NCBI GenBank assembly: GCA_030704615.1
Contig: CM060734.1
Coordinates: 6,014,001 to 6,078,000, forward strand
Origin: Takakia lepidozioides
Lineage: Eukaryota > Plantae > Bryophyta
Direction: 5' to 3'
DNA: 64,000 nt
Below, one piece after another: positions 18,630 to 58,503 of the stretch (positions are counted from its first letter, which is position 1; each line of letters begins with the position of its first letter). Position numbers and translations under genes: made by a program. Under the pieces are notes generated by a model, which ran no database searches, had not been told where the DNA came from, and was given only the letters and a program-made list of their open reading frames with translations.

Positions 18630-18634
18630 CAATA

Positions 18635-32600: not shown

Positions 32601-33274
32601 CCACAACGCAGACGTTTTGGTTCTGTAGGCACGACATAATGACCTGTGTATTTGACAAGCCCAAGTACGGGATTCAGGGAATGCCGAAGCCTCCGGGCGT
32701 CTGGCCTGTTGCACCGGGTTGCAGCCTCTCTCAGAATGAGGCGGATGCTCTATCTGCAGCAGGATTTCGAATGGTGCAACGCACAGACGTCCCAGCCCAC
32801 GCATTTCCAGTTCCTCAGACCCAGCCATTGCAGACTGGTCGGTCCAGTAGAGACGGATTGGACAATTCTGCACATCCCACAATGCGATTCGGAAGAGTGA
32901 AGAGACGACACCTTCCCAACAAGTTGAATGAGACTCGGATTGCCAATGCTCTTGGGATGGCTTGCACTATTCAGAGCTCCGTGGACGTACCTCCACCCGG
33001 CCTTGGGCGTGTTTATCGGATGGCAACGGCCGGCTCGGCTGTACGCGACGATGTATACACAATTAAGATTGGAGTGGAGCCGACTTGCAATTGTACGGAC
33101 TTCTCGTTGATGGAAGCAAAGAAGGGTTCAAAGTATTATCCGTGCAAGCATCTGTATTACATTTACCTGAAGAGGTTGAGGATGAACGTGACTATTGATG
33201 ACTTTATTTATGCACCGGCGTTGAGCGTGAACGAGCTGCACAAACTCCTCCTTAGGGATTCCAGAAATCATTGA
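29682..33274 (+). pseudogene. Element B Mutator-like transposase (GCM-like Zn domain, DDE, SWIM) with three premature stops
   Basis: DRKHDGHPWC...VCAGALRC...CAHC...GSHC (GCM-like); VMFDHIK, FMADNAQAN, CGFH, NMAESVH (DDE with CxxH); CNCTDF...CKHLYY (SWIM); intron 31770-31855; stops at 29904, 31746 and 32171. Confidence 0.88.
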
Positions 33275-33419
33275 TGGGGCAAAGGGAATCCTCCATATGG
33301 ATATTTTCAATTGCATTTTCATGTATCAGACTTTTTTTTGCAGTGTAATGAAATGCACCCCAAAACTCTTGGAATGAGGCAATATTCCATTCAAACTGAG
33401 ATCCAACAGAAGCAGTTGT

Positions 33420-33830
33420 GGGGCCATTTCTGGAAAAATGGCGCCAAATTTCTCTATTTTGGGCCGAAAACTGGCTAAGTCCCAACATGCACTGGTACCC
33501 CTGTGTCTGGAAAAATGGCGCCAAATTTCCCTATTTTGGGCCGAAAACTGGCTAAGTCCGAACATGCTCGGGAACGGTGTCTGGAAAAATGGCGCCGAAT
33601 TTCCAGTTACATGGCCCAGAACTGCCCAACATCTGTGCAATCCCCGGCACCATGTACCGAAATTCGGCGTCACATTTCCAAATTTTGGGCTTACACACCT
33701 GTCATGAGGGGACCTATAGCCGCGGAATTCGGCACCATTTTTCGCTAGAGAGACCTATTACCGTGAAATACGTCGCGATTCTTTCCGGTTACGGACCCTA
33801 TTACCGCAAAATTCGGCGCCATTTTTGCAC
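33420..33830. repeat. B-type palindrome cluster in the 3' subterminal region of element B
   Basis: GGAAAAATGGCGCC(A/G)AATTTC and GGCTAAGTCC motifs are shared with the intron array at 22.4-23.2 kb. Confidence 0.8.
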
Positions 33831-34545
33831 ATGTCGTTGGGAATTGGCATGAGCGGAAGACGAAATATCATGAGCACAACTCTCAAAACTACAATTTCCC
33901 CTTCAAGGTGCCGAATAATATATATTTTTTCTGACACATTCCATTAAATTAATGTTTTATAATGTTTTTTATTTTCGAAATTTGTACTTCTGCTCATGAA
34001 AACCGATTGTCTTGCTGCTCCGCTCATGCCGCTCATGCTCATGAAATAGCTAACCTCCGCTTTGGAATGCTGGCCTGAGGTACGGGAACACGCCGAAACC
34101 GCACTATGACTTTGTCCCGAGGCTACACAATTATAGTACGTGAACGGAAGCACGTAGCTTCCGCATTAGCCCGCACTACAAGGCAACCCCCTCGGTAGCG
34201 CACTTATAGTACGCGCACGCGCCAGGTGCGCACTAGCACGTGAACTCCCAACGAAGGTGCAAGTTTCCTTGCCCCTTGGGTGGGAGTCACCCGATTTCGG
34301 CACTACACAAACACACGATTAATCCAATTTACCTCTCCCACTTTGTAAGCTTAGCATGCATTCTACACACTAGCCAACCATACCATGCATCACCATTCCA
34401 AACAAAATAGGACGCACAACATTTGGAAACCATTTCTTTTATAACAAAATTTGTACAATACAAGTTTTTGCAATTGGATTCCTGAGCTAGCTAAACCGGG
34501 CTAAGCATGCATTTCCTCCCCCACGCTCTAAGGTTGATGTCCCCA

Positions 34546-37500
34546 TCAACGCTTTTTCCGCTTTTGAGGTCGCCCTTCGAAAGCTGCAACCGCCTCGAAT
34601 GCATTTCCCATTTCTGAGGCACGCAACCAAGATGCCTCCACATGATGATAGCCCTTCCATTTCACGAGATACTCCGTTTCTCGATTCTTGAACCTCCTCG
34701 ACTTAAGCACTGCCTCCACCTCGTACTCAAGTTCATTTTCATGATCCAACAACACAGGTGGCGGACGCAACACTTGAGGCCGATTCGGACGCGCTTCATC
34801 TTTCAAGTAAGGCTTCAAAAGGGAGACGTGGAATACCGGATGCACCTTGCTGTTTGCCGGCAGCTCCAATTCATACACATCCTCATTCATAACCTTCCGG
34901 ATGCGAAAGGGTCCCGCATACGGAGGTACGAACTTTGGACTCACTTCCGGAGGTAGTCGAAATTTTTTGATGTTCAACCAGACCTCCGTGCCTGCCTCAA
35001 ACTTAACCTCCCTCCGCTTCGATTTGCTTGCCGTTCATACCATTTCCTAGTTTTGGCAATGTTGTACTTTGCGAGCTTCAACAAACGCTCGCGTTCTTCC
35101 AGCACTGCCGCTGCTGCCGGTTCCTCAACGTCTTGGGCGGCCCAACTTGTCGGCACCAGAGGTGCTTTTCCATAGACCAATACGAAAGGGGAAACTCCTG
35201 TTGCAGATTGTTTTGTGTTATTATAACAGAACTCTGCCGCATCCAAATGCTCCACCCAGTCCGATTGGTCTGCCGACACGTAATTCCGCAAGATCTACTT
35301 CACCACGGAATTCGCCCTTTCCGTTTGGCCGTCCGTCGTAGGTCGGAAGGCGGTGCTCATTTTGAGCCTCGTCCCCATTTTCTTCCAAAGTACCCTCCAA
35401 AATTTACTAGTAAACTTTGGATCGCGGTCCGAGACAATATCCTTCGGGAGTCCATGATGCTTGAAGACGTGGGCGAAGTAAAGTCGCCCCGTCTCCTGCG
35501 CCGTTGCTGCCTCCTTGGTGGGGATGAAATGACCCATTTTACTGAACCTATCCACCACCACCATGATTGCGTCGAATCCTTTTGACAGCGGCATAGCAGT
35601 CATGAAGTCCATCGAGAGACTTTCCCAAGACCCCTCTGGAATCGGCAAGGGTTGTAACAGCCCCGCTTGCTTTATGTACTCGCTCCGGTTTTGTTGGCAT
35701 GTGGTGCATGTCTTGACATACTCCTCGGCCTCCTCCCTCAGTTTGGGCCAGAAATACTTTTTCTTCAGGAGTGCCGCGGTGCGCTTGGCTCCGCCGTGGC
35801 CCGCAAGCGGGCCATCATGGCATTCTCTTGACTATCTCTGATCCCTCCCATCGGCACATAGAGACGTTTTTGCTTATACCGGAGCAGTCCATTTTGCAAG
35901 TGGAACTGTGATTTAATCCCCATCCTCAAGTCCCGCGTCACGGACTTCGCCATCTCATCCTTCCGGTAAGCCTTTCGAATCTTCTTTTGGAGCGCCGTCT
36001 CGCCCCTGTACACCATCATGAGCTGCTGCTTTCTACTTAAAGCATCGGCCACCACATTGTCCCGTCCCGGTTTGTACTGGATATCCACGTCGAACAGTGC
36101 CAAAGTGTCTTGCCACCTAATTTGTTTTGGGGACAACTTAGGCTGCGTGGCAAAATACTTCACCGTGACATTGTCCGTGAACACCTTCACCGGGTTGGAG
36201 CCAATATAGTGGCACCAAAGCTCAAGGCAATGCACCACCGCCTTCATTTCTTTCTCGTGCGTTGGCCACCGCCGCTCCACTTCATTCAATTTCTTACTTT
36301 CGTAAGCCACTGGACGTCCCTCCTGCATGAGTACACCTCCAATCGCGAAGTCCGACGCATCCGTATGAATCTCAAATGGGCGGTCGAACTCCGGGATTTT
36401 CAGGACTGGAGCTTCCGCCATCCGCTGCTTCAACTCGGCAAAAGCTTGGCCACAAAAGGTGTTCCATACCCAGACTTTGGATTTACACAGGAGGTCTGAC
36501 AGCGGCCCCGCAATCTTGGCAAAATTTCTCACATACTTTCGGTAATAGGAGGCGAGTCCTAAGAAGGATTGCACTCCTGGGATCGAAGTCGGAGGCTCCC
36601 AGTCCAAGATTGCTCTCACCTTTCTGTCATCCATTTTGATCCCATCTAGTGTAATCACATGCCCCAAGAACTCCACTTTTGTGACCCCGAATTCGCACTT
36701 TGAAGCTTTGGCATATAGCTTCTCTTCCCGTAATTTCTGGAATACCCTTTTGAGGTGCTCCAGGTGCTCTTCCTTTGTTTTCGAGTACACCGAGATGTCG
36801 TCGATGTACAAAGTTGTCCAACCACTCCTGGAAAAGGCTGTTCATTAGCGTGCTAAAGGTTGCGGGTGCGTTGGTGAGCCCAAAGGGCATCACTAAGAAC
36901 TCATAGGAACCATACCTTGTCCTGCACGCGGTCTTTTCTTCATCTCCTTCCGCCACTCGAATTTGATGATATCCGGAGCGCAAATCGATCCGGCTGAAAT
37001 ACTTCGCTCCTGCCAACCGATCGAAGAGGTCATCGATCCTTGGCAAAGGGTATCGGTTTTTGATAGTCACCTTATTTAGAGCCCTGTAATCGACACACAT
37101 CCGCAGCGTCCCATCCTTCTTGTCTGCGAATAGCACCGGGGCTCCGTAAGGTGACTTACTCAGCCGAATGTACCCCTTTGACATTAGATCCTTGAGTTGA
37201 GTCTTCAGCTCGACCAACTCTCTGTGGCTCAACCGGTAGGGTGCCTTGGCAGGCGGCTCCGATCCCGGTATTACCTCAATTTTGTGGTCAACTCCTCTTC
37301 GCGGTGGCAAGCCGCTTGGTAAATCCTCCGGTTGTCTTACGTAAAGCAAAAACTGGGGCTCGTGTGGCTCCTCCACGGCCCACTCCCTTGCTGACAAAAG
37401 GTTTATTCGCCCTCCCACGGGGTTGGGCGTTTCCGACACTCGTAAAACTTCGCCACCATTCCCACACGGTAGCGTGACTACTCTTTTGCGGCCATCTATG

Positions 37501-39073
37501 ACCGCTCCGAATCTGCTCAAAAAGGTCATTCCCAAAATGAGATCCACTCCATCGATCTCGCAAATGGTGAAGTTCTCACGTCCCTCCCAACTCCCGAACT
37601 GAAGAGGAACATCGAACGCCAACCTCGTCGCCAATTGTGGTTCTCCTTTAGAAGAGCGCACCTCAATCGAGGCCCCCACATCACTTGTCGGGAGTCCCAG
37701 CTTCCGTGCCGTTGCCGGTGTCATGAAGGAGTGCGACGCTCCTGTGTCCACCAACAACGATACGTTAGTTCCGGAGTTTATCCCACTCACAAACATTAAC
37801 TGACTCCCTTTACGCAAGGCGTCAGTTTCCTGATACAACTCACAAGAGTAGTTGCCTACCTTGCAAGTCTTGGCGACCACCGCCTCCACCAAGCGGCTGA
37901 TGGAGGCTTCGGATAACTCCGTGGTTGCCCGAGTCATGTTCAATTATCGGGGATTTGTACACTTCTTGGCCATGTGCCCGGGCTTCCCGCAATTAAAGCA
38001 CACTCCATCGAAGGTCGCCTTCTGTCCGCCATAAGCCGCCGCACCTGGTTTCCCTTTCGGGGCACCGGGTGTCGTCTTGATGTGTGAGGGCCCTCCCTTC
38101 GATTTCCATGTGCCATTGTTGCCGCGTGGCCTATCCCACTTCTTTTCCGGTCGGAAGGAGTCACCTTCCCGCTGGACCTTCTTGTGGTTCAGCTCCGTAC
38201 GGCCTTGTCTTTCGCCCCTAGGGACATCCGAAAAACATTCAGCCCTTTCAATTGCCTTGTTCAAAGTCTTAGGTGGCTTCTTCTCCAACTTCCGTCTGGC
38301 CATGGGGCCAGTCCCGCCACAAAGTTGAAGACCATTTCTGGTTCTACCATGTCCGCAATTTTGAGCAACAGCACATTGAAAGCCTGAACATATCCCCGAA
38401 TGTCATCCGTTTGCTTCAAATTCCTCATCTTGTCTCGGGCAAGCCAAGACGCGTTGAGGGGCACAAACTGTTTCTTCATGAGTTCCTTGAACCCACTCCA
38501 GTTCAAGGTCTCCGGGTTTGGACCTCGGTCGTGAAGGCGTTTCTGCCACCATTGTTGAGCATAGCCCCTCAAATAGGTGGGAGCCAATTCCACCCGATCC
38601 TCGTCATCCAACTTGGCCGCCCGGAAGTACTGCTCTAGCTCCAAGAGCTAGGTGTTGAGTGCCTTCCGATTTTGGACGCCCTCGAAGGTGTCGGGTTCCT
38701 TAGGCTTCACCTTAAACTTTGCCTTAGTGGAAGTGGCATTAGTCGCCTTTAACACGTCTTTCAACGTCCCACCAAACTGCGCCAACAACCCTTCCCAAAA
38801 GGCTGCTGGCATGGGAGGCATCTGTTGGTCTGTCGGAGCTCTCAGAGATTCCTCGGGCTCCGACTCCTCAGATTCCTCCCGTCCTTGAGCGGCCTCGTTT
38901 CCAAAGGCATGCATCGCTTCCTCAAATGGCCGCTTCGGTGACACGTCGCCCCCATCGGGCTCACCAGGATCATCATCTTTTGGGCCGTTCCGCTTTCGCT
39001 TTGGCTTGCTCGACCCCATGATGAGGCCGATCCCAAGGACGATCGCGTACTGAACTCTAAGCTCTGATACCAA
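34546..39073 (-). pseudogene. Chromovirus gag-pol (gag, CCHC, protease, RT, RNase H, integrase, chromodomain), disrupted
   Basis: CFNCGKPGHMAKKC; [10 protein letters not shown]; [11 protein letters not shown]...YIDD; HTDASDFAIG; SMDFMT...DRDPKF...DGQTERAN; YAGPFRI; YEVEAVLKSR...YLVKWKGY..EASW; several frameshifts and stops. Confidence 0.95.
39061..39072 (-). promoter_or_regulatory. Primer-binding site, initiator tRNA-Met type
   Basis: TGGTATCAGAGC on the - strand, 2 bp from the 5' LTR. Confidence 0.9.
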
Positions 39074-39074
39074 G

Positions 39075-39801
39075 TGTCGCGCACCTCACTTCGGTAAGCT
39101 CCCCTTCAAGTCATAGTTACTCGCTTGATGCGCGCACCTAACTCCCAAACTGGCCACCGGGCCAACTCGGAGCTTCGACTGCTCACCGGGGCATAACGGT
39201 CCCCCTTTACTCCTCCACTAGACCCTCTCCCAATTTGGGCCTAGTGGAAATTCCTTTTGGTTGATGGCAGTCCGGAATAGCTCCCCACACCTTGGTCACT
39301 TTCCGGCTCGCACGCTTACTCACTAGTTTTTGGACACCAACGGGCTTGCACCGTTCTCGGGGTTACTACTCCCTATATATACTTCTGTGACTGTCCGCGG
39401 GTGTTTCACAAACAACACCACCATTTTATGGCGAACCACCACGAAAACCCTCGATTCCCGGTGATGAGTCGCGGTGAGTCTTGGCCCACCCACCACGGTC
39501 CCCTTGGACCGTGCTGAGTCCCAAGACTCCCCACGACTCCCACCACAAGGTCTCCGCCCCCATGGTGAGTCCTATGCCATCCCCACTAAGTCCCACTAAG
39601 CTACCACCACCCCTTGTGGAGCCACCCCCACCGCAACCCGGTGTGCGGGGCTCCACCTAGTGAGTGCCTCCACCTCCTCGAGTGCTTTGGGCACTCGAGG
39701 TTGCTTCAGCCCCCCGTACCTATTGCTGCCACTGCCCCTACCACAGGGGCAGCCCCTCTGCGACCCGACCCCCCCTGCCCTCAAGGCAAATGGCCGCGAC
39801 C
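39075..39801 (-). repeat. 5' LTR of the chromovirus
   Basis: Near-identical to 18635-19360; the base at 39801 is C instead of A; followed by TSD CAATA. Confidence 0.93.
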
Positions 39802-39806
39802 CAATA

Positions 39807-41190
39807 TGCTTGGCATGGTTTTGCTTGATGTACTCCCACCAGGCAAGAAGTCGGTGATTCCCGTCCCACACAAAAAACATTTTGCCCGACATATGGCCGA
39901 AGTCTGGATCACCCTTCAGCATTGTCTCGAATTCGTCGTTGCGAGTGTGCCAGTGGGTATCCCATGTTAACAATTCATCCGCAGTGGGTCCACGAGTTTC
40001 GCCGTCCTCATTCTCAATGGAAACGTAGAAGGCTAGCAAACCTAGATGATACCCTTCTCGAAATGCGAACTTGAGCTTATCCACATCTCCTGGAAGAGTC
40101 TGCCTGACGATGGGAAGGGAGACCATGCGACAGAGTGGAATTCGAAGAGTCCGCTGGAATACCTTGCTACCCAGAACTCTGCCAATGCTACTGTGTGTCT
40201 CCTCCAACATTGTATCCGCTGCACTTTGGAATTCCTCCGGAGACATTTCTGCAGGTGGCGGTAGGGGCTGAGCAGCTGGAGCATCCCCAACTGCAGCTGT
40301 ACTCTGGGGAATCTTTGCGGGCAGTTCTCGCATTGCAGAGGCCTCCTCCGGGCCTGTAGTATTCTGAAAATCTTCCTCAACGGTGGTGAAGTCCTGCTGC
40401 GAACGTTGAGCAGTAGCACCCTCCTCCGCTGACAGATCGACAAAATCGGTCGATCCTGTTGTCTTCGCTGCAGCAGAGACGCCCCCAACATCGCCTGGCT
40501 GGAAATCAAGCAGGAACTGGGCTTCAAGTCGTGGAATCGGTTTTGCGGGAGACTGCTCCGCCCTCCCCCTGATTGCCTTATGTTTCTTGATTCTTGCAGG
40601 TAAAGGTGTCTGTTGCATTTGAATCTACACTACACCCTTTTGCTTCATTCTCTTGGGGGGGGGGGGGGGTTTGGCGAAAACGGCCTGGTCCAGTTCAAAA
40701 ACCAGTTCAAAGACGGGCTGCTTCTTCTTCGTCTTTGCTGGAGAAGGGCCCGACCCCTGTTGGCGATTCTCCATGACCTTCAAACGCAAGTATTTCTCTG
40801 GGGTTTTGAACTGCAAAGACTTGCCTTTCCAAGCCGCGTCCTTGAAACGCACAGGGCTAGGCCCGGCAGGAAGACCCGTGCTCGTGGATCGGCTGGGTGT
40901 GCGTACTGCAGCTAGCTCCACGGATTCTTCCTGCGGCTCTTCGGATTCCTGCGATCCCTCCACCACCTCCACCTTTCGAGTTAGGCATGCAAACATCTTT
41001 TGCATTCAAGTGTCCTATCATACAGTCTAAGAATTGCACAACAAAAATGAGGGAGGGTTTCGGTGCTCGATCAGCTGCACACATCCCGATAGCACGGAGC
41101 TCTCACTGGGGGCTGGGTTGCCTGCGTTGCCTGCTGCTGCGAGATGACCATCTCCTCCTGAAGACGCATTTGCTTCCTCCCCTTCGGCAT
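39807..41190 (-). pseudogene. Copy C ParB-MTase gene, 5' part (N-terminal linker and ParB-like domain)
   Basis: ORF 39596-40618 contains IPLCRMVSLPIVRQ...GYHLG...FYVS...FFVWDGNHRLLAWWEYI; cut by the LTR at KHI; probable frameshift in the G-run at about 40654-40669; start tentative. Confidence 0.85.
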
Positions 41191-41539
41191 TGGCCTACGT
41201 CCAAAGTACAACTTGCAGAGCTTGCGACGATGTCTCTTCTCAAGTGCACGAACTTCCTCCCTCTCGGGTTGGAGCATAAAAAGAACGCAGACACGGAAAA
41301 GAGTGCAGATGGAAAGGGCGCGAGAGGGGTGACTGAGTAGACACGACAAAAAAAGATGAAACGGCGGTGATGCACCACTTGGCTTCGAAAGGCTCGGATG
41401 GAAGTGTCTCCTCATGGACTATGCGTCATTACAAAATTCGAATCGTCAAAGGTACGCCTGCCATCCGCCAAACAAACATCATTAACCCACGGTCAGGCCG
41501 TGCCGTCTCCTACCACTTCAGCCAGCATGAGTGCAGACA

Positions 41540-41735
41540 TCAAAATGCGGTGCCGCATTTCCGTTGGTCTACGTGTTCACATATTCATGGCATTTGCGTC
41601 CCAGCGTCTCATGAGTTAGAGTGAAAACGGAAATGCGGTGCCGCATTTCCGTTAAGGCAGCTTTGAGTTGCATCTTGAACGGAAATGCGGTTTCATGCTT
41701 GACATGCAAACCGGAAATGCGGCGACGCATTTCCA
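41540..41735. repeat. C-type palindrome cluster (AAATGCGGTGCCGCATTTCC, 4 copies) upstream of the copy C gene
   Basis: Directly visible; ends just before the putative LTR start at 41756. Confidence 0.85.
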
Positions 41736-47175: not shown

Positions 47176-47793
47176 CAACGACGCAATGGCGTGAGCGTTG
47201 CACGTGAGCGCGCGAGCGTACGCTCACGCCAGCTGACGTGGCGTGAGCCTGCACACATGCTGACGTGGCGTGAGCGTCATGTCAGCATGCTGATGTGGCG
47301 GTAAATGATGACGTGGCACTGTCCGTCAACTGCCACGTCAGCATTAACATGCGCCGCCTATAACCGTGGATGGTCCTATGACCGTGGAATTAATGCAGGG
47401 AATCTTGCCTAAATAGAATCAAGACGAGCGTTGAGGCCTACAATTGCAGCATCCAACATTGTGCAATTACAAATGTTTGTTTCACTTTTACAATTACGAA
47501 GACGACAAAATATCCTCACAAAGTGTGCGCCATAAAGGCTGCCACGAGAAGACTTCCTCCCTCCTCAAATAACAATGAGAGTTATGATCATCTTCAAAAG
47601 ATGATTGTAGTGCATAGCGACAGCAAGACATGTAGACTTCGAACGGTGCAATGACAAATGTGCACTACCTAAAAGTTGTCACTCAGACCTCACTCCGTAT
47701 AGTTGGAGGCCATATCATTGCACAGCCGACGAATTGATGTGAATTACACATTTCAAATCATGGTCATCCACATACCACATTACATAGTTCATG

Positions 47794-50700
47794 CTACCCA
47801 TGTGTTGTATCCCGCTGCAAAAGAGTATCGACCTCGTTGAAACTCATAGTGGCCTGGTGAATGAAGTTGTCACGTTTGGGATCGCAAACCATCCTCCTCA
47901 AAAATATGAAATACAAATGTTTGCAGGGTATGAATTTACCTCTCTTGCCCAAACTGGTTGATAGCATATTCACAAAATCAGGACATGTGCAATTGGGGAA
48001 ATTGGAAACCGTGATGTCGTAGGTCCTGTCATGAACAGCAGATGTGGAAGTGATGATTGTGAATACCCGACCATATCCTGGATCGGGTACTTCCGTGGTG
48101 CTTCCGACACGAGCTTGGAGCATTCTTGCGGACTCCACTTTGCCAAAGTGTTCAGCGGTTGGAGGGAAACGCCGAACGAGCTTTCCATCTCGTTTGGTTG
48201 GCCACAAGTCAGGATTTGCCGGGGGGACCCGGGAGGACGCAGGAGTAGTAGCACATGCATGGAGTTGGGGTTGTCTCGCAAGGGAAAAACCTGCCTCCTC
48301 CAGCATTTCAATCTCCTGAAAGCTGAGATGTGTTCCCACCTTCACGGGCCAAACGGTTGGAGGAGATGGCTTCATCACTACGGAAGGACGCACAGTTCCA
48401 TGCACACATCTGGCACAATCATCTGCGCAGAACCAGAACTTGTGGTTCTTGGCTTCTGGTTGACCGTATGGACGCATCAAGCCCGTGAAAGTCGGAGCAG
48501 GAGTTCGGGCACCACCTCTGGATATAGATGAAGTGCACTTCTCGAAATTAGTTGCCCTGATCGCTGTACATTTCACACGAGACCCGACACTTGTGCGTTC
48601 TATGTGCCAAACGTGGTCGGGGCATGCGGACTCAAGCACATCAAGGGGGTTGTTTCTCTCCTGCACCATTTCAGTGGCACGGTTTGATGCTGGAGCTTGC
48701 CGTCGTGTTGGAGGTTCCTCCACAATGGAGGTTCCGGACACGGAGCTGTCATGCAGGGGAACACGAGGCTTCGAGAAGTTATCACGGTCTGCCCTGTGGG
48801 AATCTGAATCCGAACCAGGTGGAGTGTTCAATTTCCTCTTACAGGAGCCGAATCTCTCCTCCCCTTCAAGATGTGGAACTCTAGAAACAAGTGGCGTTCC
48901 CTGGGCATACATGCTCACCGCCCGTGCTATCTTGATTGGATCCCCAGATCTGTTTGCAGCACGCAACATCAACTCCGATTTGTCCGGACCCTTGCCACCA
49001 ACCCCACCTCGTAAGAAATCACGGTATCGGGTTTGTTGTTGCAAGGCACGTATCAAATCATCTGTTGTTGCCACATACAAATCCCGACCTCGTTTCCCAG
49101 ACTGCTGCAACCATGCATTGTGCACAGTTTCTGCCAAATTGCAAGATGGCATGTCTGCCATTTCCTCAATGGACATGTTCTGCAAAGAGGATAACCACAC
49201 TTCAGAATAGTGCACAGGAAACAACATAAAGAAAGCAATGAGTCAAAAATATGGAAAGCAAATGTATGAATAAAGCATGAAATAGAAGCCTCGTACCATT
49301 GTCATGGCTGCTCCCCACTGTCTATACCGGAAGTGCCAAAACGCCAGCCAATCTTCCAATGCTCTCATACTCTCAAGTGATGCAGCTCCAGAAGAGAACC
49401 ACCAGGCACGAATTGTCTGGAACAAAGTGTCCGCCTCCTTCATTGTTCTAGCATCTTTGTACTCTTTGCACAATTTACGGTGCTGAGTCTGCATCTCTGG
49501 TTTGATGTCCGACTTTGTATGTTTTTCCAGAGATTGTGTCCAATGGAATAGACATGTACGCTCTCTTCCTGGCATAGGCACTTTTGGGTCGCCCGATCCG
49601 AAGACAATACGAATAGCATTGAAATTTGCTTGAGCACTATCCGCCATGAAACCTGCGAAATTTGGAGATGGCAGCCCATGGCAGCCCATGACACGTATCA
49701 GGGAATTCCACATGAGCTTCTGGGATTCCGTATCCTCGGATTGCATGTCACAAACTGCAATTGTCATAACTCGTTGGTACACTGGATCGTAGACATGACA
49801 AGCCATTGTCGTCCAATCCTTCACTCGTTTCACATGATCAAACATAAGAAAACAGTTCTGCAAGTCCCCAGTCTTTGCATCCGCTTCACGAGGCTAACCC
49901 CACTGCCCTCCCCAACAGTCGACATTTTGAAAAGAAAAACTTTGATGGCACCTTGACCTGGGAATACATTGTCCTGGATGTAATCGTACTTGCTCAGTCG
50001 TTTCAATTCCAAAATATTGTCTATGTAGCCTCTGATCCCAGAGCCCATTCTCAATGCATTGATCTGATGCCGAATGTTAGGTGAACTTAAAGTGGAGAAA
50101 TGATCCATGACCAGGTCCAATGCTGCACCGTCAAGTTTAGTCCCCACAGAATCTCCTTCACTCAAAATATGGCTTTCCAAGAAGGACTTGCTTGCGCCAA
50201 GAGCAATTGCAGATGTTGTTGCGGATGGGTTTCTCCCGAACTCCTGTTTGATCAACCTCGATACTGTCTCAACACTCTCCCTGTAATCCCCCTTCGAGAC
50301 AGGATGGTTATGGAATCCAAAATGCACACAAGCTCTCGTCATTGTATTCAAACGGTGGACAACATAGTACATTCTTGCTCCGCAGAGCGCCAAGCAGGAT
50401 GGCACAAGTTTGCAGAATTTGCAGACGAAAGTGTTTGCCGGTGGAGGGGCAGTCCCAGGCTGAAATGGATTCTCCGCCAGACCCTCCCATTCGCTTTGAT
50501 TATGAACTCCAGACTGAAGAAAGTGTCTGCAATTCAAATTATCACACCTAAGGTGTCCATTGCAAACTGTCCTCCTGAAAACAAGCTTGTCATCATTCTG
50601 AATATTGGATGTTTTTGTTCTGCACCACGGGTGCCCGTCGTGTTTCTTGTCCATTCCATGCATCATGATTGTTACACCTCCAACTCGCGGAGGAGGAGGC

Positions 50701-51308
50701 AGCTCGAATAGGATATCGCCATCAAAAGTCTCCGGCAAGAACTTCACAGGCACCTGCTTCAAAGATTCCCAATCAATTCCCCGCAACTCACTTTTGAATC
50801 CAGCCATTCCTCCCATCGCCCGCAATTTTGGAATGACACTACAAATCTCTTCTTCATCAGCTTCTGCAACCACAGTAGGAAGGACTGGATTTGGAATTTC
50901 ACTTATGTCATCATCGGAAGAATCCGAAAGCTCAACGATTGGAGTGGAGGAAGTCTGTTCTTTTTTCACCACCACCTCCCTCTTGTCTTCAACGACCGAA
51001 GCAGCAGTCCCGGGCGTCACATATGACCCAAGGGACTTTCGCCGAGGCTCTCCAAGTACTCTGTATCGACCAGGACGCACTCTCCACTGGCTGATATGAG
51101 CCGTCTCATCACGGTTTTGGAAAGAATATTTCACCAACTTCCCTTTCAGATCGTAAACCTCTTTCTCCAAAAAGATGGAGCCATTCTGCAGCTGAAAACG
51201 GGTAGCCAAGACATGTTCCAGAACAATTGCAAATCCATTGTCAAGGACTTCCTGGGAGAACGGCACTGGTTTGTCGTCTGAGAAGAACTCCGCTTCAGAG
51301 GAAGCCAT
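47794..51308 (-). pseudogene. Element A Mutator-like transposase (GCM-like, DDE, SWIM) with one frameshift
   Basis: DKKHDGHPWC...VCNGHLRC...CKFC...HFGFHNHP; LMFDHVK, FMADSAQAN, CLFH, NLAETVH; CTCPDF...CKHLYF; GT-AG intron 49296-49180 at the same position as in B; frameshift near 49870. Confidence 0.9.
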
Positions 51309-52163
51309 CTTCCTTCCTCGAGTATGTTTGTACCTTGCTATCGCAGATCTAGTGTAAATCGGTTTACTGCTGTCTCCAGAACACAGTTGAAGAATGAGCA
51401 GAGCATATGGCGGAGGAAGCTCAGATAACGACTGTGCATATTCTGTTATTCATTCCAGATATGCAGCCGTCCATTTTAATTACTTTTCTTGTGGGCCCAG
51501 TGGTCAGAGAATCCATAGGGGCAGTGTCGGCAACTGTTAAACCGTTAATCAGAACCTCATCAATAAACCCAATAACAAAGCCGACTTCCTGGAAGCATGC
51601 CACAGGATCCGAGAATGGGATTGCAGATTAAGTAAATGTATCTATATACTACTACCAATGATCATGCGCACCTGGAAAGTTCCAAATGTGCAACGAATGT
51701 GGGGTTTGGATAACAAGGATGACCGTGTATGATATTCCAAAATTTGTCATCAAACTCTCGTTCATTTATATTTATTTGTTTAAGACTGCGCATCAATTTC
51801 TGGGATTCGCTGTTCTTTTTAAATATTGAACCAGTTATAATTTAGAACACGCCGTTTTGTTTTGGGCGGCACACGTCAGACATCCATAACTGAATACGAA
51901 CAGCTGTACACCAATTGCTGGCATGTGCACTAATAACGAAACGACTATGTGTAACGGTCACGCGGGAGGGAATCCGATGCTTCTAGAGACACGCAAGAAC
52001 ACAGGCAATCCCGCAAGAAATCGAGAGTCACTGCGTTTTTCTACTTTTCGCGCTTAGAGGGAGAGTGGTAGTCAAGCTGGAGAGGGTTCCTTCTAGAATA
52101 CGAAAGAGAAGAAAGTCTCTTTATTTTACTTCCCTTAGAGAGAGACGCAGAGCAAGAGAGAAA

Positions 52164-55100
52164 ATGACGAGGCGTCGTTTGTTGGAGAACACAGGGCCAA
52201 GGCAGCAGGTGAACGCGGAGACTGATTCACAAGAGCAGACGGAGACTGAGGCAGCGGCTGCGACACAGTCGGCGATAAGAGTGCGCCAGCCTGTGGAGGC
52301 AGAGATGAATCGCAGGGACACTGAAGAAGGTGGAAGCACGCGGAACGCCGAACCTGAAGAAGGTCAAGAAACCCTTGCGCAGACAGAAACTCCAGCAGAT
52401 GTGAGAGGGAAGAGGAAAGCTGCAGAAGGGGATCAAATTTCAAAACCTAAGAAGGTGCCAGTAAGTTTTATCATATAGTCTGTGTGATTGCCTTTCAAGG
52501 AGTCCTTCCTCTTCCATTCTTTAGCAGGAACTACTGAATCGCGAGCGTCGTTAACGCCATTCGATTCTGCTCATGAGATTTATGTACCTATGTGTTTGAA
52601 GAGAGAGTCTGCACTTACTATTCTCCCTAAACTACACTGAATGTCGTTGCCGCCAATCAGTTGCACATATATGTCATTACACAACACCGATCCGGCAGGT
52701 TGTTATCTTTTGTGATTGTCGTTAACGCCGTTCGCTATCGCTCTCACTTTTGTTTTGAATACGGCAGTCTCGGCTTTGCATGTGTAGATTGTGCTGAATT
52801 CTTTCACACCATTCATGGTGAGTTTCCTTGATACAGAGTGATTGTCGTTACCGCCATTCACTATTTGCAAATCACTTAGTCAGAACTGAATGGCATCGTG
52901 CAGAAAACTGTGAGGTCGAAGCCTACAGGATCAGAGGGGAAAGGATCTGGAGATGGGGACGAGTCCGCAAAAAGCTCAGAGAATACAGATGAAGCAGATG
53001 AATCCGAAGTGCACTACCTTGACAAGGTGAAAGAACTCATGTCATTCCAGAAGGTAAACTCTCAGGAGGTTATAAGGGACATGCTCGTATCTGGAGGGCG
53101 TCTGGACATACCTCTGTGCCGGATGATATCAATGCCTGTTGTGCGTCCACCTCTTTCCCATGACATAACAAAATTGGAGAGTGATTTTGTGCATGGATAT
53201 AGACTTGGTGCACAAGTTTTTTATGTGTCACTGACGGATATAAATGGGAAAAGCACATTAGTTTCTCCAGAGATCAGTGATAACTGGGATGAGTGCTGGA
53301 AAGATGCCAATGAGGAGTTCGAGCTGGGCCTCATGATGGGAAAGAACACCCAGCAATTTTGCAACCACATGTTCTACGTCTGGGACGGCAACCACCGATT
53401 GCTGGCATGGATGGGATACATTCAGAAACACCATTCGAAAGACAAAGACAAGCATGTTGCTGTGGAGGCAATGGTTTTGGATCCAGGAAACGACATCGCT
53501 AGGCTTCTTACAGCTATGCACGACGTGAACAAGTAAGTCATCCAGGAGATTTCATTCCCTCTGTAGTGTCTTGTTGATCCTCAAAAAACAGTGTTAAGGA
53601 ATGCAATGTTTTCAATGTTTTTGCAGATCGACAGAGAAATCGCATGTGACAACAAGCTTGGTTCACACACTATTCCGAATTCAGAGGATTGGTCTGATGA
53701 AGCTGGATGATTTTCGGACAGTACTACCACCCAATATCATCAAGAAGTGCGAAACAGGAAGAGCTGCAGGCACTTGGTATTCTTTGACACGAGAGGCGTT
53801 TCTGGAGTACATGTATGCGGTAAGCCCGAGTCTGTAATCTGTTTACTTTTCGAATACATGTTTAGAGTCCCTTCGGAGCTAATCACTACTTGAATGAATG
53901 CAGCAAGAACTGGCAGAGGCAGCTGAGAAGGGAAAATCCGAATATTACCGCACTACACCAGAGGAACTAAGGACATCAAAGGGTGTGGAAGCTGCAATAA
54001 AGAAGGAGTTTGAGATGCGAAGAACCAAATTGATGTCAGCCTTCGGAAAGCAGCTTAGAATAGTAGATCCTGGACTTGGTCCTGAGTTCCTTCAGCAGAT
54101 CAAAACACACTATGACAAGCATGTGCATCCGGAGATGCAGCAGGAGAAATTGCACCGGCTGGCCATATCGATGGTCGACCCACAAACAAAAATAAGGTGG
54201 CTGGAGATATGGAACTCAGATCAAACAGTAAAGGACTTGAATCAGTTCCCAAAGAGCACCATACAGCCTGGCACAAAGGTGGAAGGAATCAGTGATTTGG
54301 TGTTTGATAACTGGCTCCACAAGGCTACATTTTGGAGTCAGGTGTGTATTCGAACATGCTGTTTCTTCTCTTCAAGTATGTGATGTGTTTCTTTTTTGCA
54401 ATTCTGACAAATATACTATTTGCAGCTCGAAAAGCGCGCCGTCATTGTGCTGGATCAGACTTTGAAGGACCTGAACATTGCGATTGTTTCCCCTCCCCAA
54501 ATGTCATTGGAGGCATACATAAGGAAGTGGAGAGGTCTCACCTGGAGATACTGTTTTTTCCGGGAGTTCTCCAAAGATGGTAACATTTTACGGTCCAACG
54601 ACTTTGACAGTCAGGTTGGAGGAGAGTGGGCCATGATGCGAGTTGTGTACAGGTGAAATGTCATACTTGAAACTCTACTGTTTTTTTGGGAAAAATTGTG
54701 GCTTCATATGGATTGCAATCTTAGATCCAGATTGAATGTCGTTGACGACATTCACTTCTTTGTCTGAGTCATTCTAAGCGAGTATATGAATTCACCTGGT
54801 TAGGATCTAAGGGTGCAATTATATTGTCCCTGATTAGAATTGATAATGTCCTTGAATGGCGTTGACGACATTCACATACGGAGTTGTTGTGTGGTCCTCA
54901 AGGTTATTTAAATTTTTGTAATGTCCATAGAGGTTACAATGAGGGTTGATCACTTCATTTTGCTGAATGTCAATGCAGACATTCAGTTGTTCTGCATTGT
55001 TTTTCCTCTTGCGATGAATATGGAGGCTTGATAAGCTCTGTTTTAAGAAATCCAAAGTGAATGTCGTTGACGACATTCACAGCTGTGTCTGTATTATTCA

Positions 55101-57796
55101 AAAACGACAAATTCAATTTTCATGGATTGGGGAGCTAAGTAATTGGTTTCTTTTTTGTATTTTTGTGAATGGCGTTGACGCCATTCACATACAGTGATGT
55201 TGTGAGGTCCTCAGTGATAGGTTCGTTATGAATGTGCATTGAGTTTTCCTGGATGGTTCCTTACTCAATTTTTTTATTTCCATCCTGTGATTTTGCTTCA
55301 TTTCAGTAATAATTTGGCTTCATTCTTGAATGTCGTTGACGACATTCACTTCTATTCTGTGTCATTTCTAATCGCTTATTTGCATTCACCTGGATTAGGA
55401 TGTATTTACAGTGTCATGGAATGGAATGTTCTGAATGGCGTTGACGACATTCATATCTGGAGCAGTAGTGTGGTCCTGAAAGGTCCTTGGAGCAGTTGTC
55501 AGAGCCATTTCAATCCATGTTTTATTCTTTCTGTTCTACTTGCATCTTACTCACTGAGCGCTTTTGTGGGTTGGGATTCATCTCCTTTTTTCAGGTACAC
55601 GAAATATGTGCTTATGGAAGGAAATCACCTGAGCGGAATTCCCGACTATCTTGACATGTGGTCGGACCCTGCAAACGATCCAACCATGTATACTGCAGGG
55701 ATATTGAAGGACTGGAGTCCTTCTCACTTCAGAGACTGTGGGTGGTACCTTGACTGCCCACCTGAGCACACGACCTTTCAAGAACAGCATATGAAATACT
55801 TGAACAATAACGCTGAGATGCTGGCGCCTTTGACTGACGAAGAGTATCAACGAAACATAGCAACCTTGGCTGCCAAGGAGCCTGATGCTCAGGGAACGCC
55901 GCAGAAGGGAAAGAAGGCGGGCCGCAAACCAAAAGACAAGGCTGTTGATGTCATAGCCATCTCACCAGCAAAGCCAAAGGACAAAGACAAGTCCAAAGAG
56001 AAGGAAAAGGACAAGGGGAAGGAGAATGAAAAGGAGATGGAGAGTGGGCAGGACTTTAGTGCTGGAAGATATACCCGCACTCTTCAGTGCGTGTTCGATG
56101 CCAAGCCACACCCTTCCCGTTCTGATTCAGCAGGAGAGATGAAAATTGTTAATGAGGGTTGGCTTTCGATGATGCAGAGTCGAAAGAGAGGATACACTGG
56201 GGTGCCATCCCCTACCTGGGACAATATAATCTCATTCCTCAATCTGGTGAGAATTCCACTTTCTTTCCTTTTTCTCTGAATGTTTCGTTGGCAGTATTTC
56301 AGTCTCGTTCTTTGAAAACATTCTTGCCATCGTTCTTATAAAAAACATGTCTGTTGCAGGTGAGCACAGGTCCCACCTTCGTGTGCGGTGTGCAGAAAAC
56401 TTATGCGGCCGACATTGTCATTCTCGACATTCCGGATGGCCAGGCTGTGCCAGAAGTTCTTCCAAAGGGCAAGACGCCAGGGTGGAACAAATTCGAGGAC
56501 AACTACTGGAGTTGGGTATTCGGGTTCTGTAACAATTTCCTCTCTGATGCAGGGACACTTCTGCTTTTTCAGTCATGTGACAATGATAGTCGTCGGGCAT
56601 TGGCATCATACCTCAAGTCTTCAGGGTTTGAAGTTTTGCGCACATGGAATTATGTGAACAGCCTCTACCTTGTGAAAGGGGGTTTCCCTGGTCAGCTGGT
56701 ATGCCGTCTGCCTTCTGCTTATGCTTGATCATGAGTTTTAATTTTCTCTGCAGCTCCACTCTAGTAGAATGTTTTATGATCGACACCGATCATCAACGAT
56801 TCATGGTTTTTTGGTGTCAGAGTTCTGAATAGCCGATGTACACACTTCCACTTTAGATTGTGTTTACCACACTAACCTGCTATCTTTGGCAGACGAGGAT
56901 GTTCGAGGCGATCTGCCTGCGGAGGATTCGCACATCAAAGACACCATCCTCCATCCGCAGCTTTGAGATTTCTGACCAGGGTTGTTTCGTCAACCCCCCC
57001 TATGAGCCCCATGTCGATGACATTTTGTACAACTTCATGCAGTCCAGTCAGACTCTGAAGAGACCAGATGGCACTCCCTGGAGAGGTGTAAAGGAAAAGT
57101 CACCAGCATTCATGCAAATACTGCTGGAGTCATGCAGCCACCGCTCTGCACGGGTGGTCGATCTTTCTGTGTCCACAGGTTCGTTTTCTCCCTTCCGAAT
57201 TGGTTTCCTTTCAACAGTTTCATCTGCTTAAATCCCCTCCTCCAAACTGCTTATGTTCTCCTGTCTGGTGCAGGAGCAACTTACCACGCATGCAAGGCAG
57301 GCGGAAGAAGCCTTTTTGGTATGGAGGGTGATTCTGACCTCTACAACACAGTGCTCCTCCCCCTTTTGTCTGGCTCCACTTCAGGCACACAGACTGATCG
57401 GATTCATATTCAAATGATGACGATCCCGAAGATAAGCAGGTCGACAACGACTTTTCATGTGAGTAAGTACTAAACCCTCTTTGGGAGTCATACTCAATTT
57501 CTCGATAACATCAAAGTTACAGTAATAACTTTTTCAGGCTGTCTTTCAGGAAAGCCAGCGGTGGATCTTCAGGAGATACAGTCATTTCTGGCGAGTCTGT
57601 TTTCGACAGCCCCCTTTCCAATTTTTTGCTCCCTGTTTATGCCGAAGCAATGACACTTCACGCGTCCGAGTCCCTATCCCCTGACTTTTTAGTGGCCAGC
57701 CGTAGGTGTATCCAGCGTGGATCCGGTGTTCTAAAATACTTAGACTTAGATGCAGAGGAAGAGGGGATACATTGTACTGACTCTGAGTCAGACTGA
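52164..57796 (+). CDS. ParB/Srx-like plus beta-class N6A/N4C DNA methyltransferase-like fusion protein, 10 predicted exons
   Basis: Phase-compatible GT-AG exons 52164-52460, 52904-53532, 53627-53819, 53904-54341, 54426-54652, 55595-56246, 56360-56698, 56893-57178, 57274-57462, 57538-57796; open through the whole MTase-like domain; a probable 1-bp deletion near 57397 diverts the frame to a stop at 57473 (1086 aa as is, about 1169 aa if repaired). Confidence 0.85.
54734..55452. repeat. Intronic array of the 20-bp palindrome GAATGTCGTTGACGACATTC (7 copies)
   Basis: Copies start at 54734, 54854, 54965, 55059, 55167, 55328 and 55433; four more degenerate copies lie in intron 1 (52543, 52639, 52714, 52840). 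Confidence 0.9.
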
Positions 57797-58503
57797 ACTG
57801 TATTCTTTTAATATTCATTTTCATATTATCTGGAAAACGTTGAATCCCCTTACTCTACCGTAGTTGTTCCTTTAGAACAAATAATAATCACAGAATCAAC
57901 TTTCGTTTAAATTGCTATATGTATGAATCCATCTCACAAACCTTCCTGACTCTTCTCATATCCATTGTGCATTCATCTACACTGTATTCATGCGTGCTCC
58001 ATTCATGAAAGCTTCCTTTGTACAACATCCATTGTACATTCATCCTCTGTACTCTTTAATCCACCCCACAAACCTTCCACACTCATTTCATATACTTTGT
58101 GCATTCGTCAAAAGATTTGGTCATGCATCTTCCTGTCATGAATTTTTGTCATTGCTCAACATCCATTATACATTCATCCATTTTACTCTTATCCATCCGT
58201 CATTCATCCATCTACATAGATTTTTCAAACTCATCCATCTGTTTATCATCCAACTGTACATTCATCCATCATTTATTCAATGCCTTTTATTATGTCGTCC
58301 AGCTTGTTTCCGCGGTAAAGGGTGCCAATCCGCGGGAATACACTCCACTTCTTTCTGGGTGCGTGGTGACTCGGCCTCCACGTGTGATGACGTGGACTGA
58401 GCCCCGTGACGTGGCATTTGCGCAAGGTGACGTGGCGTGAGCGCAGTCGCGCTCACGCGCTCACGTGACCAGGCTCACGCCGAGGCATCCCTGCAGAACG
58501 GAG

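Follow-up and report, generated by a model that had tools for sequence, protein, structure and literature searches.

Predicted ParB-methyltransferase accessory proteins of Mutator-like elements in Takakia lepidozioides and other land plants mostly lack the motif IV aromatic

Results

Nested transposons and their accessory genes

The window analysed is a stretch of 64,000 nucleotides from Takakia lepidozioides (GenBank assembly GCA_030704615.1, contig CM060734.1, positions 6,014,001 to 6,078,000, forward strand), and all coordinates are positions within it. Its features are as follows.

47176..58493, no strand assigned: element A, an 11.3-kb Mutator-like DNA transposon sitting inside a Ty3 retroelement
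47794..51308, minus: transposase of A, with Cys/His-rich N-terminus, conserved Asp...Asp, CxxH and SWIM finger
52065..57795, plus: multi-exon accessory gene of A, traced by tblastn, collinear with homologs including Ceratodon P0010; start exon predicted
52542..52860, no strand assigned: four degenerate A palindromes in the predicted first intron
53051..53533, plus: ParB/Srx-fold exon, DGNHR motif at 53384
54733..55453, no strand assigned: seven A palindromes, TGAATGTCGT-TG-ACGACATTCA, in intron 54652-55594
56396..56698, plus: MTase exon 1, with motif IV DIPDG (56426) and family-invariant P-x-W-N (Trp 56483)
56893..57178, plus: MTase exon 2, with WRGVKEK (57079) and motif I DLSVST-G (57160)
57274..57466, plus: MTase exon 3, with motif II Glu (57324)
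57629..57795, plus: last exon, with conserved LPxYA ... [FY]xDxxAEE-like tail
19786..34055, no strand assigned: element B, 14.3 kb, between 10-bp direct repeats 19776-19785 and 34056-34065
24801-24418 (ParB) and 21480 (motif IV), minus: dead ParB-MTase gene of B
29907-33274, plus: divergent transposase of B
Within element B: 46 palindromes, GGAAATTCGG-CG-CCGAATTTCC-like
15775..41734, minus: element C
40147-39773, minus: ParB exon of C, interrupted by a Ty3 element
18246-17000, minus: MTase part of C
Both sides of that Ty3 insertion: 15 C palindromes, GGAAATGCGG-CA-CCGCATTTCC-like
3634..5047, plus: remnant D of a C-like element, with last exon and 10 C-type palindromes

Element A is bounded by a 10-bp direct repeat (47166-47175 and 58494-58503, alternatively readable as 11 bp) and by terminal inverted repeats that are imperfect and span about 70 bp; it is covered by contigs from four public runs, end to end in three. 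Both A and B combine 10-bp target duplications with short imperfect terminal inverted repeats, as expected of MULEs, whose target-site duplications range from 8 to 11 bp (PMC6446971). The Ty3 element cutting C has LTRs (39075-39803 and 18635-19362) that are 97% identical, and it hosts B within. Tandem duplication of B and C was considered and rejected, B being a separate element nested in the Ty3 element that interrupts C. The ends of C were looked for and not found, and no transposase was found beside C in the window.

The transposase gene of A carries a 1-bp frameshift near 49875, where other copies have one extra base. Homologs conserve D357, D425 and C453xxH456; there is a candidate Glu, and the SWIM match (E 0.007) lies under the cut-off. 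None of 27 transposase homologs matched a Pfam MULE model, and a search with the transposase profile found no solved relative.

The accessory gene of A, encoded opposite the transposase, is predicted to yield a protein of about 1,100 residues with an acidic N-terminus, a ParB-fold domain, a helical middle, a beta-MTase fold and an acidic tail. Contigs of run X8, which is guessed to be RNA, skip three GT..AG introns; joints in contigs of this run open MTase exon 1 (56246>56396) and link it to exon 2 (56698>56893). Intron 57179-57273 was placed by its GT/AG ends and by homology, and is retained in the sole X8 contig spanning it. Exon 3 lacks 1 bp near 57411 that other copies have, and the acidic tail is shifted as a result. 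The last exon recurs in B, C, remnant D and the Ceratodon and Riccia homologs. The accessory genes of B (frameshift near 21522, plus stops) and C (stop near 18247, plus the Ty3 insertion) are pseudogenes.

Loss of an aromatic rather than gain of an acid

The original prediction held that motif IV reads DIPDG in A and B and DILDG in C, and a six-frame scan with codon read-out located these motifs at 56426-56440 (A, plus), 21480-21466 (B, minus) and 17871-17857 (C, minus). The codons likewise confirmed the non-canonical motif I that it described: DLSVSTG at 57160 in A, where a predicted intron splits the last Gly codon, DLTCGTG at 20888 in B and DLICGTG at 17268 in C. The Leu of DILDG, whose CTG codon is a single C>T step from the CCG of A, probably reflects CpG decay, C being a dead copy. 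At 56992, A also has an NPPY, which was tried as a relocated motif IV and rejected, as it lies outside motif IV and is unconserved in B or C. There are indeed three diverged copies, as predicted, but they amount to about two independent lineages, since B and C are nearer each other (57-61% amino acid identity) than either is to A (25-36%).

Pfam and PDB searches with single exons of the window gave zero matches, so assignment of the MTase motifs depends on homologs. Family-built profiles align D-x-P-D on the DPPY of CcrM (E 1.3e-6) and the second motif on DPFFGVG (E 3.8e-9), in agreement with the predicted labels, and motif IV precedes motif I in the window, as in the beta class. Homologs P0010 and P0037 match Pfam over cut-off. 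An AF2 model of Ceratodon homolog P0051 (motif DAPEG; pLDDT 88) matches CcrM with Foldseek E 2e-12 (Z 18.2, rmsd 3.2, 213 aligned); in this homolog model the domain has the beta-class N6/N4 amino-methyltransferase (PF01555) fold. Word-seeded homolog searching with the motif IV exons returned nothing, while the ParB exon succeeded as an anchor; Atlas matches for the motif IV exon, all below 0.9, are leads only, and no relative was found in viral_contigs.

Motifs were tallied in 99 relatives from mosses, liverworts, lycophytes, ferns and conifers, taken from the best 150 of 1,854 matches to a profile made from non-canonical members. At motif IV position 4 these best matches have Thr (31), Glu (21), Asp (16), Ser (15), Phe (7) or Asn (5), and never Tyr, so the relatives are not mostly canonical: the stacking aromatic of [DNS]PP[YFW] occurs in 7 of 99 and in none of the window copies (DIPD, DIPD, DILD). 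Two ParB-anchored sets free of the profile bias concur (aromatic in 1 of 8 proteins and 0 of 11 locus clusters); mostly decayed ParB-anchored loci also show Met, Arg, Leu and Gly there. The (T)SPPY motif of MpDN4MT1/N4CMT-type N4C MTases is absent, position 1 being Asp in 85 of the 99 best matches and Ser in one. Motif I is eroded as well, with Phe in 10, the first Gly in 40 (Ser in 24) and the last Gly in 56 of 75 sequences; among 35 proteins with both motifs, none is canonical in both.

Other features persist. Among the same best 150 of 1,854 matches, Pro3 is kept in 91 of 99, the loop Trp (its equivalence drawn from the CcrM alignment) in 99% and a motif II Glu/Asp in 84%, and the position of CcrM K193 is Lys or Arg in 89% of relatives. 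In N4CMT and M1.HpyAVI, by the available accounts, the SAM pocket is lined by equivalents of Asp1, Pro3, Trp and the motif II acid (PMC10406627, PMC5173035). An enzyme, too, would need the conserved residues, among them the catalytic Asp, Pro3, the Lys and much of the SAM pocket, an observation that counts against the dead-enzyme reading. The family adds signatures of its own, PxWN and WRGxxE[KR].

The residue at position 4 changes over and over on a quick tree of 105 columns, from which we claim no root or donor because 44 of 101 forks are open. Phe cases are nested in non-aromatic clades (3 changes). By tree path among the best 150 of 1,854 matches, two of the three nearest relatives of A have Glu, and those of B and C have Ser, Thr or Asn. 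Such repeated switching means that the signal is loss of the aromatic and not gain of Asp; to judge from the sequences, the conserved trait is a missing base-stacking aromatic with several SAM-pocket residues kept. The argument from a shared Asp does not hold, given Asp in just 16, and Thr, Glu, Asp, Ser or Asn in 88, of the 99 best matches.

A modified-base reader in which the acidic position 4 itself is the specificity switch, the original lead, becomes improbable with this result. Asp and Glu do form one large group on the quick tree (31 of 36 rows, support 94), and the CG-centred sites described below could be read in a methylation-dependent manner; but Thr and Ser are commoner than Asp and Glu (46 vs 37 of 99, best 150 of 1,854 matches), and Asp and Glu swap among near relatives. 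Methyl-group readers, moreover, usually gain aromatics rather than lose them.

Selection on the MTase-like domain

Variants at 10-90% frequency among A-family copies comprise 10 synonymous and 2 non-synonymous changes (binomial p 2e-5), giving pN/pS of 0.06, based on the 40 best supported of 102 variant rows and on frequencies in a single sample; at frequencies of at least 10%, the counts are 12 and 4. B and C differ by dN 0.34 with dS saturated. The MTase-like domain is held by purifying selection, with dN/dS far below 1 and not near 1, in support of the prediction that a retained but altered role outweighs random decay.

Neutral decay of a captured methylase is accordingly barely credible for the family. 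It has on its side that B and C are pseudogenes and that A bears private replacements (Y86C and V167A in spliced-domain numbering) and the tail frameshift. It is already refuted: copies differ with pN/pS of about 0.06-0.10, dS is saturated between families, and W/N/G/D columns are near-invariant from liverworts to conifers.

The ParB half and the palindromes

A model of a ParB homolog matches ParB/Noc proteins (E 0.036, probability 0.96), which fill the top nine Foldseek rows (E 0.036-0.29), and superposes on KorB (Z 7.5, rmsd 3.0, 95 aligned) and PadC (Z 6.9); Atlas matches are DUF3723 (0.96) and ParB_N (0.91). D-G-N-H-R is retained in 43-47 of the aligned rows, and phmmer with a ParB homolog found nothing in PDB. 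By modest scores, then, the model points to a ParB-N fold with a GxxR motif. A helical region follows, and in this middle region no clear helix-turn-helix match was identified. The modest match (Z 7.5, E 0.036) and the missing helix-turn-helix both weigh against the reading favoured in the Discussion.

Each element has its own 22-bp palindrome in non-coding DNA, with 11 copies in A, 46 in B and 15 in C, confined to that element (chance expectation at most 0.6). Such family-specific repeated motifs resemble those targeted in VANC-like systems. In A, 20 of the 22 half-sites in all 11 copies have CG at their positions 8-9, against a CpG o/e of 0.32 in the remainder of intron 54652-55594; in B, CG is lost in 29 of 92 half-sites. 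Among 33 related locus clusters of at least 2.4 kb, 14 have a 22-bp palindrome in at least four copies, a number reached in shuffles of 1 of 33, and 19 have no such array. Positions 8-9 are CG, TG or CA in 81-100% of half-sites in 10 of these 14, vs a background of 14-18%, and the CG register is missing from the other four. Of 16 clusters with at least 5 kb upstream, 7 have a transposase homolog there on the opposite strand (all 22 matches divergent), and nine of these long clusters show none.

Palindromes of B and C are also found close to the ends of their elements, and their binder could thus be the transposase. The accessory protein might then be a structural co-factor like mudrB, its MTase fold a dimer or scaffold, with no link to methylation. 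Beta-class MTase domains are described as dimers (PMC6787082, PMC10406627), and AtMu1 transposase alone can reportedly activate and hypomethylate cognate copies (10.64898/2026.08.24.746577). We consider this distinctly unlikely: all 11 A palindromes lie in predicted introns of the accessory gene, more than 2.9 kb from either element end, related-locus arrays cluster directly upstream of or within the ParB-MTase gene, and inverted-repeat arrays are said to accompany ParB accessory genes in the unrelated Plavaka elements (10.1101/2025.02.11.637652).

Discussion

Starting from the observed fold, architecture, selection, family-wide motif pattern and element-specific palindromes with a fixed CG, we favour, while judging the case evenly balanced, a beta-class MTase fold under purifying selection that lost its aromatic family-wide and is probably dead, in a ParB-fold protein that would load on the element's own CG-containing palindromes and counter host silencing. 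Methyl transfer onto DNA bases would be absent. The ParB-fold half would bind palindromes as a dimer, in parS-like fashion, and may spread as a clamp. The MTase fold would contribute dimerisation, SAM binding or coverage of CG, thereby shielding the element from host 5mC, in a role analogous to that of VANC for VANDAL elements. The x-P-[DEST]-G sequence may be retained as a tight turn, as residue preferences for such turns suggest, which would account for the Asp with no need of a chemical function. The original interpretation is thus partly supported: among its suggested functions, a shield (or scaffold) would fit better than a reader dependent on Asp.

An active enzyme is the main rival, and an unlikely one: a slow or re-wired amino-MTase writing 4mC or another SAM-derived group on the palindrome CG or across the element, so blocking 5mC. 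Conservation of Asp1, Pro3, loop Trp, Lys and the motif II acid speaks for it, as does the fixed CG register of the palindromes. According to the available accounts, the eukaryotic beta-class N4CMT and MpDN4MT1 act on CG, and 4,5-dimethyl-C was not detected in Marchantia sperm (PMC10406627, 10.1101/2021.02.12.428880); algal ParB-MTase accessory proteins have been proposed to modify their own element (PMC12477816). Yet 92 of 99 relatives (best 150 of 1,854 matches) lack the aromatic and 65 of 75 lack the motif I Phe, and Ser replaces the first Gly of motif I in A and in 24 of 75. Characterised relatives lose activity through changes of this kind (PMC3036652, PMC5173035). In CcrM the flipped adenine is stacked by Tyr34 (PMC6787082), Y107G inactivates HP0593 (PMC3036652), SPPY>APPA abolishes N4CMT activity (PMC8885841), and G197 and F195 matter for SAM binding by M1.HpyAVI (PMC5173035); copy A has Ser at the equivalents of both. 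Beta-class N4C enzymes are also described as having S-P-P-Y, not D-x-P-x (PMC8885841).

A close parallel is Sola1-1_Ec32 of Ectocarpus, where a ParB-like and amino-MTase fusion of about 1,100 residues lies on the strand opposite a DDE transposase and is proposed to bind and modify its own element; it differs in belonging to a brown alga and to a Sola transposon with 4-bp target-site duplications, the comparison being by description, and the available sections of that source state no motif IV sequence for it and mention no palindromes (PMC12477816). Red-algal Plavaka elements, and also Chondrus Mutators, are reported to carry PAG2 (N6A-MTase and SET) and PAG3 (ParB and 2OG oxygenase). A ParB-fold protein there adjoins inverted-repeat arrays, with the same self-targeting hypothesis, but the fusion partner of ParB is an oxygenase and the MTase has a gene of its own (10.1101/2025.02.11.637652), whereas the land-plant family joins ParB and a degenerate MTase in one protein. 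Arabidopsis VANDAL elements are likewise Mutator-like, with a second gene and family-specific repeated non-coding motifs; VANC activity has been demonstrated by experiment (PMC5735166), while the Takakia role is drawn by analogy, and we claim no homology to VANC. The accessory proteins share with bacterial ParB, Noc and KorB CTP clamps a ParB-N fold, as modelled, and repeated palindromes near the gene (parS-type in bacteria), but lack ParA and an identified helix-turn-helix. Their GxxRxxA-like motif we take to be the ParB motif. To our knowledge, VANC has no ParB or MTase domain.

CcrM, the DpnA-like M1.HpyAVI, N4CMT and MpDN4MT1 (Pfam N6_N4_Mtase) resemble the MTase part in fold, in motif order (IV before X-I-II) and in the Asp, Pro, Trp, Lys and acidic SAM contacts. 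Unlike these enzymes, the Takakia copies have no Tyr, Phe or Trp at motif IV position 4 and an eroded FxGxG, and the land-plant family has PxWN, WRGxxE[KR] and the ParB fusion. METTL14 is a precedent for a beta-like fold that selection maintained once the stacking aromatic had gone, with a scaffold and nucleic-acid binding role; it has lost D/N and SAM binding too and works with an active METTL3 partner (PMC8287941), whereas the land-plant family retains the Asp, and its element supplies no active partner. DIRS1-type retroelements also carry N6A-MTase domains, predicted inactive in all copies, but PCIF1-derived, of another MTase group and within a retroelement polyprotein (PMC4738411).

We found no literature report of ParB-MTase MULEs in land plants, of their degenerate motif or of their palindromes, though Iyer et al. 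2011, said to cover green-algal versions of ParB-MTase proteins, may mention the land-plant proteins. ParB-MTase accessory genes were already known in algal transposons and were assumed to be writers; what is new is a self-owned 22-bp palindrome per element. Annotation of land-plant members of this family as 'N6_N4_Mtase' should not be equated with 4mC or 6mA writing.

Recognition and de-silencing by a transposon of its own DNA is known in few cases, of which VANDAL/VANC is the main one tested. The present pattern suggests that land plants dropped the methylase chemistry early and kept the fold. Because matched protein-palindrome pairs occur across several families with a common CG register, specificity and mechanism can be tested by swaps. 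We tentatively propose, as a possibility that is itself rather doubtful, that MULEs of non-flowering land plants may use a ParB/parS-style nucleotide-gated clamp that loads on CG-centred 22-bp palindromes and spreads, with a SAM-binding pseudo-methylase (or non-canonical 4mC writer) excluding 5mC. If true, plants ranging from liverworts and mosses to ferns and conifers would share a conserved anti-silencing device that is programmable and sequence-specific.

A methyltransferase fold joined to a ParB fold

Because the window exons had no match in Pfam or the PDB when searched on their own, the label "methyltransferase" required testing. A homolog search anchored on the upstream exon, which carries the DGNHR motif of the ParB domain (near-invariant among homologs), returned 46 longer proteins. 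Two of these, P0010 from Ceratodon and P0037 from Diphasiastrum, are ParB and N6_N4_Mtase fusions above the Pfam cut-off; the set also includes Riccia, Adiantum, Selaginella and Calypogeia proteins, further look-ups added Taxus and Cryptomeria, and no flowering-plant name occurs among 30 proteins looked up. Domain profiles match structures of CcrM and of the DpnA type, placing D-x-P-D over DPPY, and the AlphaFold model of another Ceratodon homolog, P0051 (pLDDT 88), has CcrM as its best structural match (E 2e-12; Z 18.2, rmsd 3.2 over 213). The fold is thus that of the P0051 model; spliced copy A is collinear with P0010 by tblastn, and its methyltransferase domain runs 242 codons without a stop. 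In a predicted model, the N-terminal half of a Riccia homolog contains a ParB-N fold: ParB/Noc entries fill the first nine Foldseek rows (E 0.036-0.29), KorB scores Z 7.5, and no HTH was identified alongside that domain.

Among named clusters of the Atlas, the ParB-fold region of P0010 (residues 230-400) lies closest to fungal DUF3723 proteins (score 0.96); an unnamed eukaryotic cluster in which Cnidaria are commonest is also near, and related accessory proteins may exist in fungal and animal elements. The conserved last exon encodes LPxYA and, some 40-55 residues on, an [FY]-x-D-x-x-A-E-E-like acidic motif that may, at a guess, be a short docking motif for a host protein. It is also present in P0045, P0051 and P0056, and lies in the window at:

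57629-57795, last exon with LPxYA
20345-20140 (-), last exon with LPxYA
16733-16530 (-), last exon with LPxYA
3925-4130, last exon with LPxYA

Loss of the motif IV aromatic

Catalytic motif IV (canonically [DNS]PP[YF], with the base-stacking aromatic at position 4) and, downstream of it, SAM motif I (FxGxG) lie where the original prediction placed them:

56426 (+), copy A: motif IV DIPDG; motif I DLSVSTG
21480 (-), copy B: motif IV DIPDG; motif I DLTCGTG
17871 (-), copy C: motif IV DILDG; motif I DLICGTG

A profile built from non-canonical members, searched against 1.84 billion representatives, gave 1,854 matches, of which the best 150 were pooled with the 46 ParB-anchored proteins. One misaligned row was dropped, as were eight canonical D-x-P-Y rows that a branch with support 94 sets apart, so that the tally covers 99 rows. 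Among these, Asp is found at position 1 in 85, Pro at position 3 in 91 and Gly at position 5 in 68, while position 4 is Thr in 31, Glu in 21, Asp in 16, Ser in 15, Phe in 7, Asn in 5, Lys in 2, and Ile and Ala in one each. The argument first made from an Asp shared by three copies is thus not supported, with Thr, Glu and Ser also frequent, and a reader dependent on that Asp is very unlikely. Nor are the relatives mostly canonical, since Tyr is absent from the 99 rows once the eight D-x-P-Y rows are excluded. Sets chosen by ParB only, with an aromatic at position 4 in one of eight proteins and none of 11 locus clusters, agree with this tally, though the profile came from non-canonical members. 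In a quick tree, one large group is mostly Asp/Glu and the others mostly Thr/Ser; the Phe rows take three changes and are placed inside non-aromatic groups. What is constant across the family is loss of the aromatic, and Asp itself is not special. We take x-P-[DEST]-G to resemble a tight turn.

The seven Phe relatives (P0010, P0189; P0139, P0178, P0185, P0187; P0070), in which Phe was apparently regained in about three lineages, are natural controls for an activity assay.

Enzyme or pseudo-enzyme

In CcrM, Tyr34 stacks the flipped adenine, with further contacts from Asp31, Pro32 and Lys193 (PMC6787082); HP0593 is inactive once the Tyr is removed (PMC3036652), as is N4CMT with SPPY>APPA (PMC8885841). 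Key SAM contacts in M1.HpyAVI are D29 and E216, with G197 crucial and F195 stacking on SAM (PMC5173035), and in N4CMT the SAM adenine is enclosed by Pro109, Trp142 and Phe280 (PMC10406627). The family keeps the Asp and the Pro, and likewise a Trp in the loop (99%), a Lys or Arg (89%) and the acid of motif II (84%). The motif I Phe is present in 10/75 and the first Gly in 40/75, and none of the 35 proteins having both motifs is canonical at both. This residue pattern is that of a pseudo-enzyme in which part of the cofactor pocket survives, and does not prove inactivity; pseudo-enzyme precedents are METTL14 (PMC8287941) and the DIRS1 MTases (PMC4738411). A writer re-wired, for instance, to place 4mC on the CG of the palindromes described below is unlikely.

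Selection on the domain

The methyltransferase region has 102 variant rows, of which the 40 with the best support were used. A-family coding variants at 10-90% frequency comprise 10 synonymous and 2 non-synonymous changes (pN/pS 0.06, p 2e-5), against 12 and 4 for all those at 10% or above; the sole DIPD change listed is synonymous. Between B and C, dN is 0.34 and dS is saturated. The domain is not decaying: retention rather than random decay, as originally proposed, is borne out, the pN/pS being far below 1, and decay as an explanation is extremely improbable. Single copies do show damage, with stops and frameshifts in B and C; in A there are two private replacements, and one base pair has been lost at each of ~49875 and ~57411. 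The Leu in motif IV of C is one C>T step from Pro, at a CpG, and is probably post-insertion decay.

Elements and expression

The window is plant-like DNA with introns, rich in LTR and DNA transposons. Copy A belongs to element A (47176-58493; 11,318 bp), which lies inside a Ty3 element; a 10-bp duplication flanks it, and its inverted repeats are short and imperfect. Its transposase-like gene, opposite in orientation to the accessory gene, combines CxxH and a SWIM finger with conserved Asp residues. A second such element, B (19786-34055), also with a 10-bp duplication, is nested in a Ty3 that breaks the ParB exon of C. Duplications of 8-11 bp and SWIM fit MULEs (PMC6446971), yet none of 27 transposase homologs matches Pfam MULE models, and we therefore call the element only "Mutator-like". 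Of 39 clusters formed by 80 related metagenome loci, 16 reach at least 5 kb upstream, and 7 of these have a transposase homolog there on the opposite strand; all 22 transposase matches are divergent. In the A-family gene, three predicted GT..AG introns that DNA runs keep are missing from contigs of X8, a public sequencing run that we guess to be RNA, and the one contig across a fourth inferred intron (57179-57273) retains it; this single run suggests expression.

Other features of the window are:

18635-39803, Ty3 with 97%-identical LTRs that splits C's ParB exon and in turn hosts B (three-level nesting)
8491-9217, another LTR of this Ty3 family, the third and more diverged
57926-58269, block of ATCCAT-rich tandem repeats lying past the end of accessory gene A and before the right terminal repeat
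9382-10311 and 11737-12381, long ORFs without convincing Pfam match
43436-44383, a further such ORF, coiled-coil-like

Element-specific palindromes

A distinct 22-bp palindrome, built from 10-bp arms around a 2-bp centre, recurs in the non-coding DNA of each element; Markov shuffles give at most 0.6 copies.

Palindromes by element, with CG at half-site positions 8-9
A: 11 copies, none outside predicted introns of the accessory gene; CG 20/22
B: 46 copies, all within element ends; CG 63/92
C: 15 copies, on either side of the Ty3 insertion; CG 28/30
D, a C-like remnant: 10 copies; CG 17/20

CpG observed/expected is 0.32 in the remainder of A's large intron. Among related clusters of at least 2.4 kb, 14 of 33 have a 22-bp palindrome in at least four copies, a number reached by shuffles in 1 of 33. 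CG, or TG/CA as its products of decay, falls at the same register in 10 of these 14 (81-100% of half-sites, against a 14-18% background) and the register is absent in four. Repeated palindromes lacking this register are seen at L001:8-194, L034:113-258, L059 and L070. The L001 and L034 palindromes, at contig starts and spaced 31-35 bp, may belong to another, terminal class of repeat. Those of A are dispersed (spacing ~100-160 bp), and those of B are amplified within larger tandem units of 146, 85/222 and 96/288 bp (blocks at 22376-23245, 26681-27673 and 27745-29478), recalling the tandem-repeat evolution of VANC targets. That the palindromes are bound by the transposase, with the accessory protein a transposition co-factor, is quite unlikely.

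A proposed role for the accessory protein

In red algae, Plavaka elements have two genes, one MTase-SET and one ParB-oxygenase, beside inverted-repeat arrays (10.1101/2025.02.11.637652), and VANC is an experimentally tested self-targeting factor (PMC5735166); the general kind is therefore already known. The land-plant Mutator-like ParB-MTase form is a variant of it, itself without account in the literature searched, where family-wide loss of the aromatic and the CG palindromes were likewise not found; Iyer et al. 2011 may mention the proteins. The analysis shows the protein's architecture and fold, the selection on the domain, the motif pattern and the CG palindromes specific to each element. 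We infer, in what we regard as an evenly balanced proposition, that the protein binds its own family's palindromes and that a non-catalytic methyltransferase fold keeps the element unsilenced. The ParB half would mediate binding, with the protein in dimeric form, and the protein may then spread; the methyltransferase fold would serve, without catalysis, to dimerise, to bind SAM or to cover the CG, so that the element would stay unsilenced.
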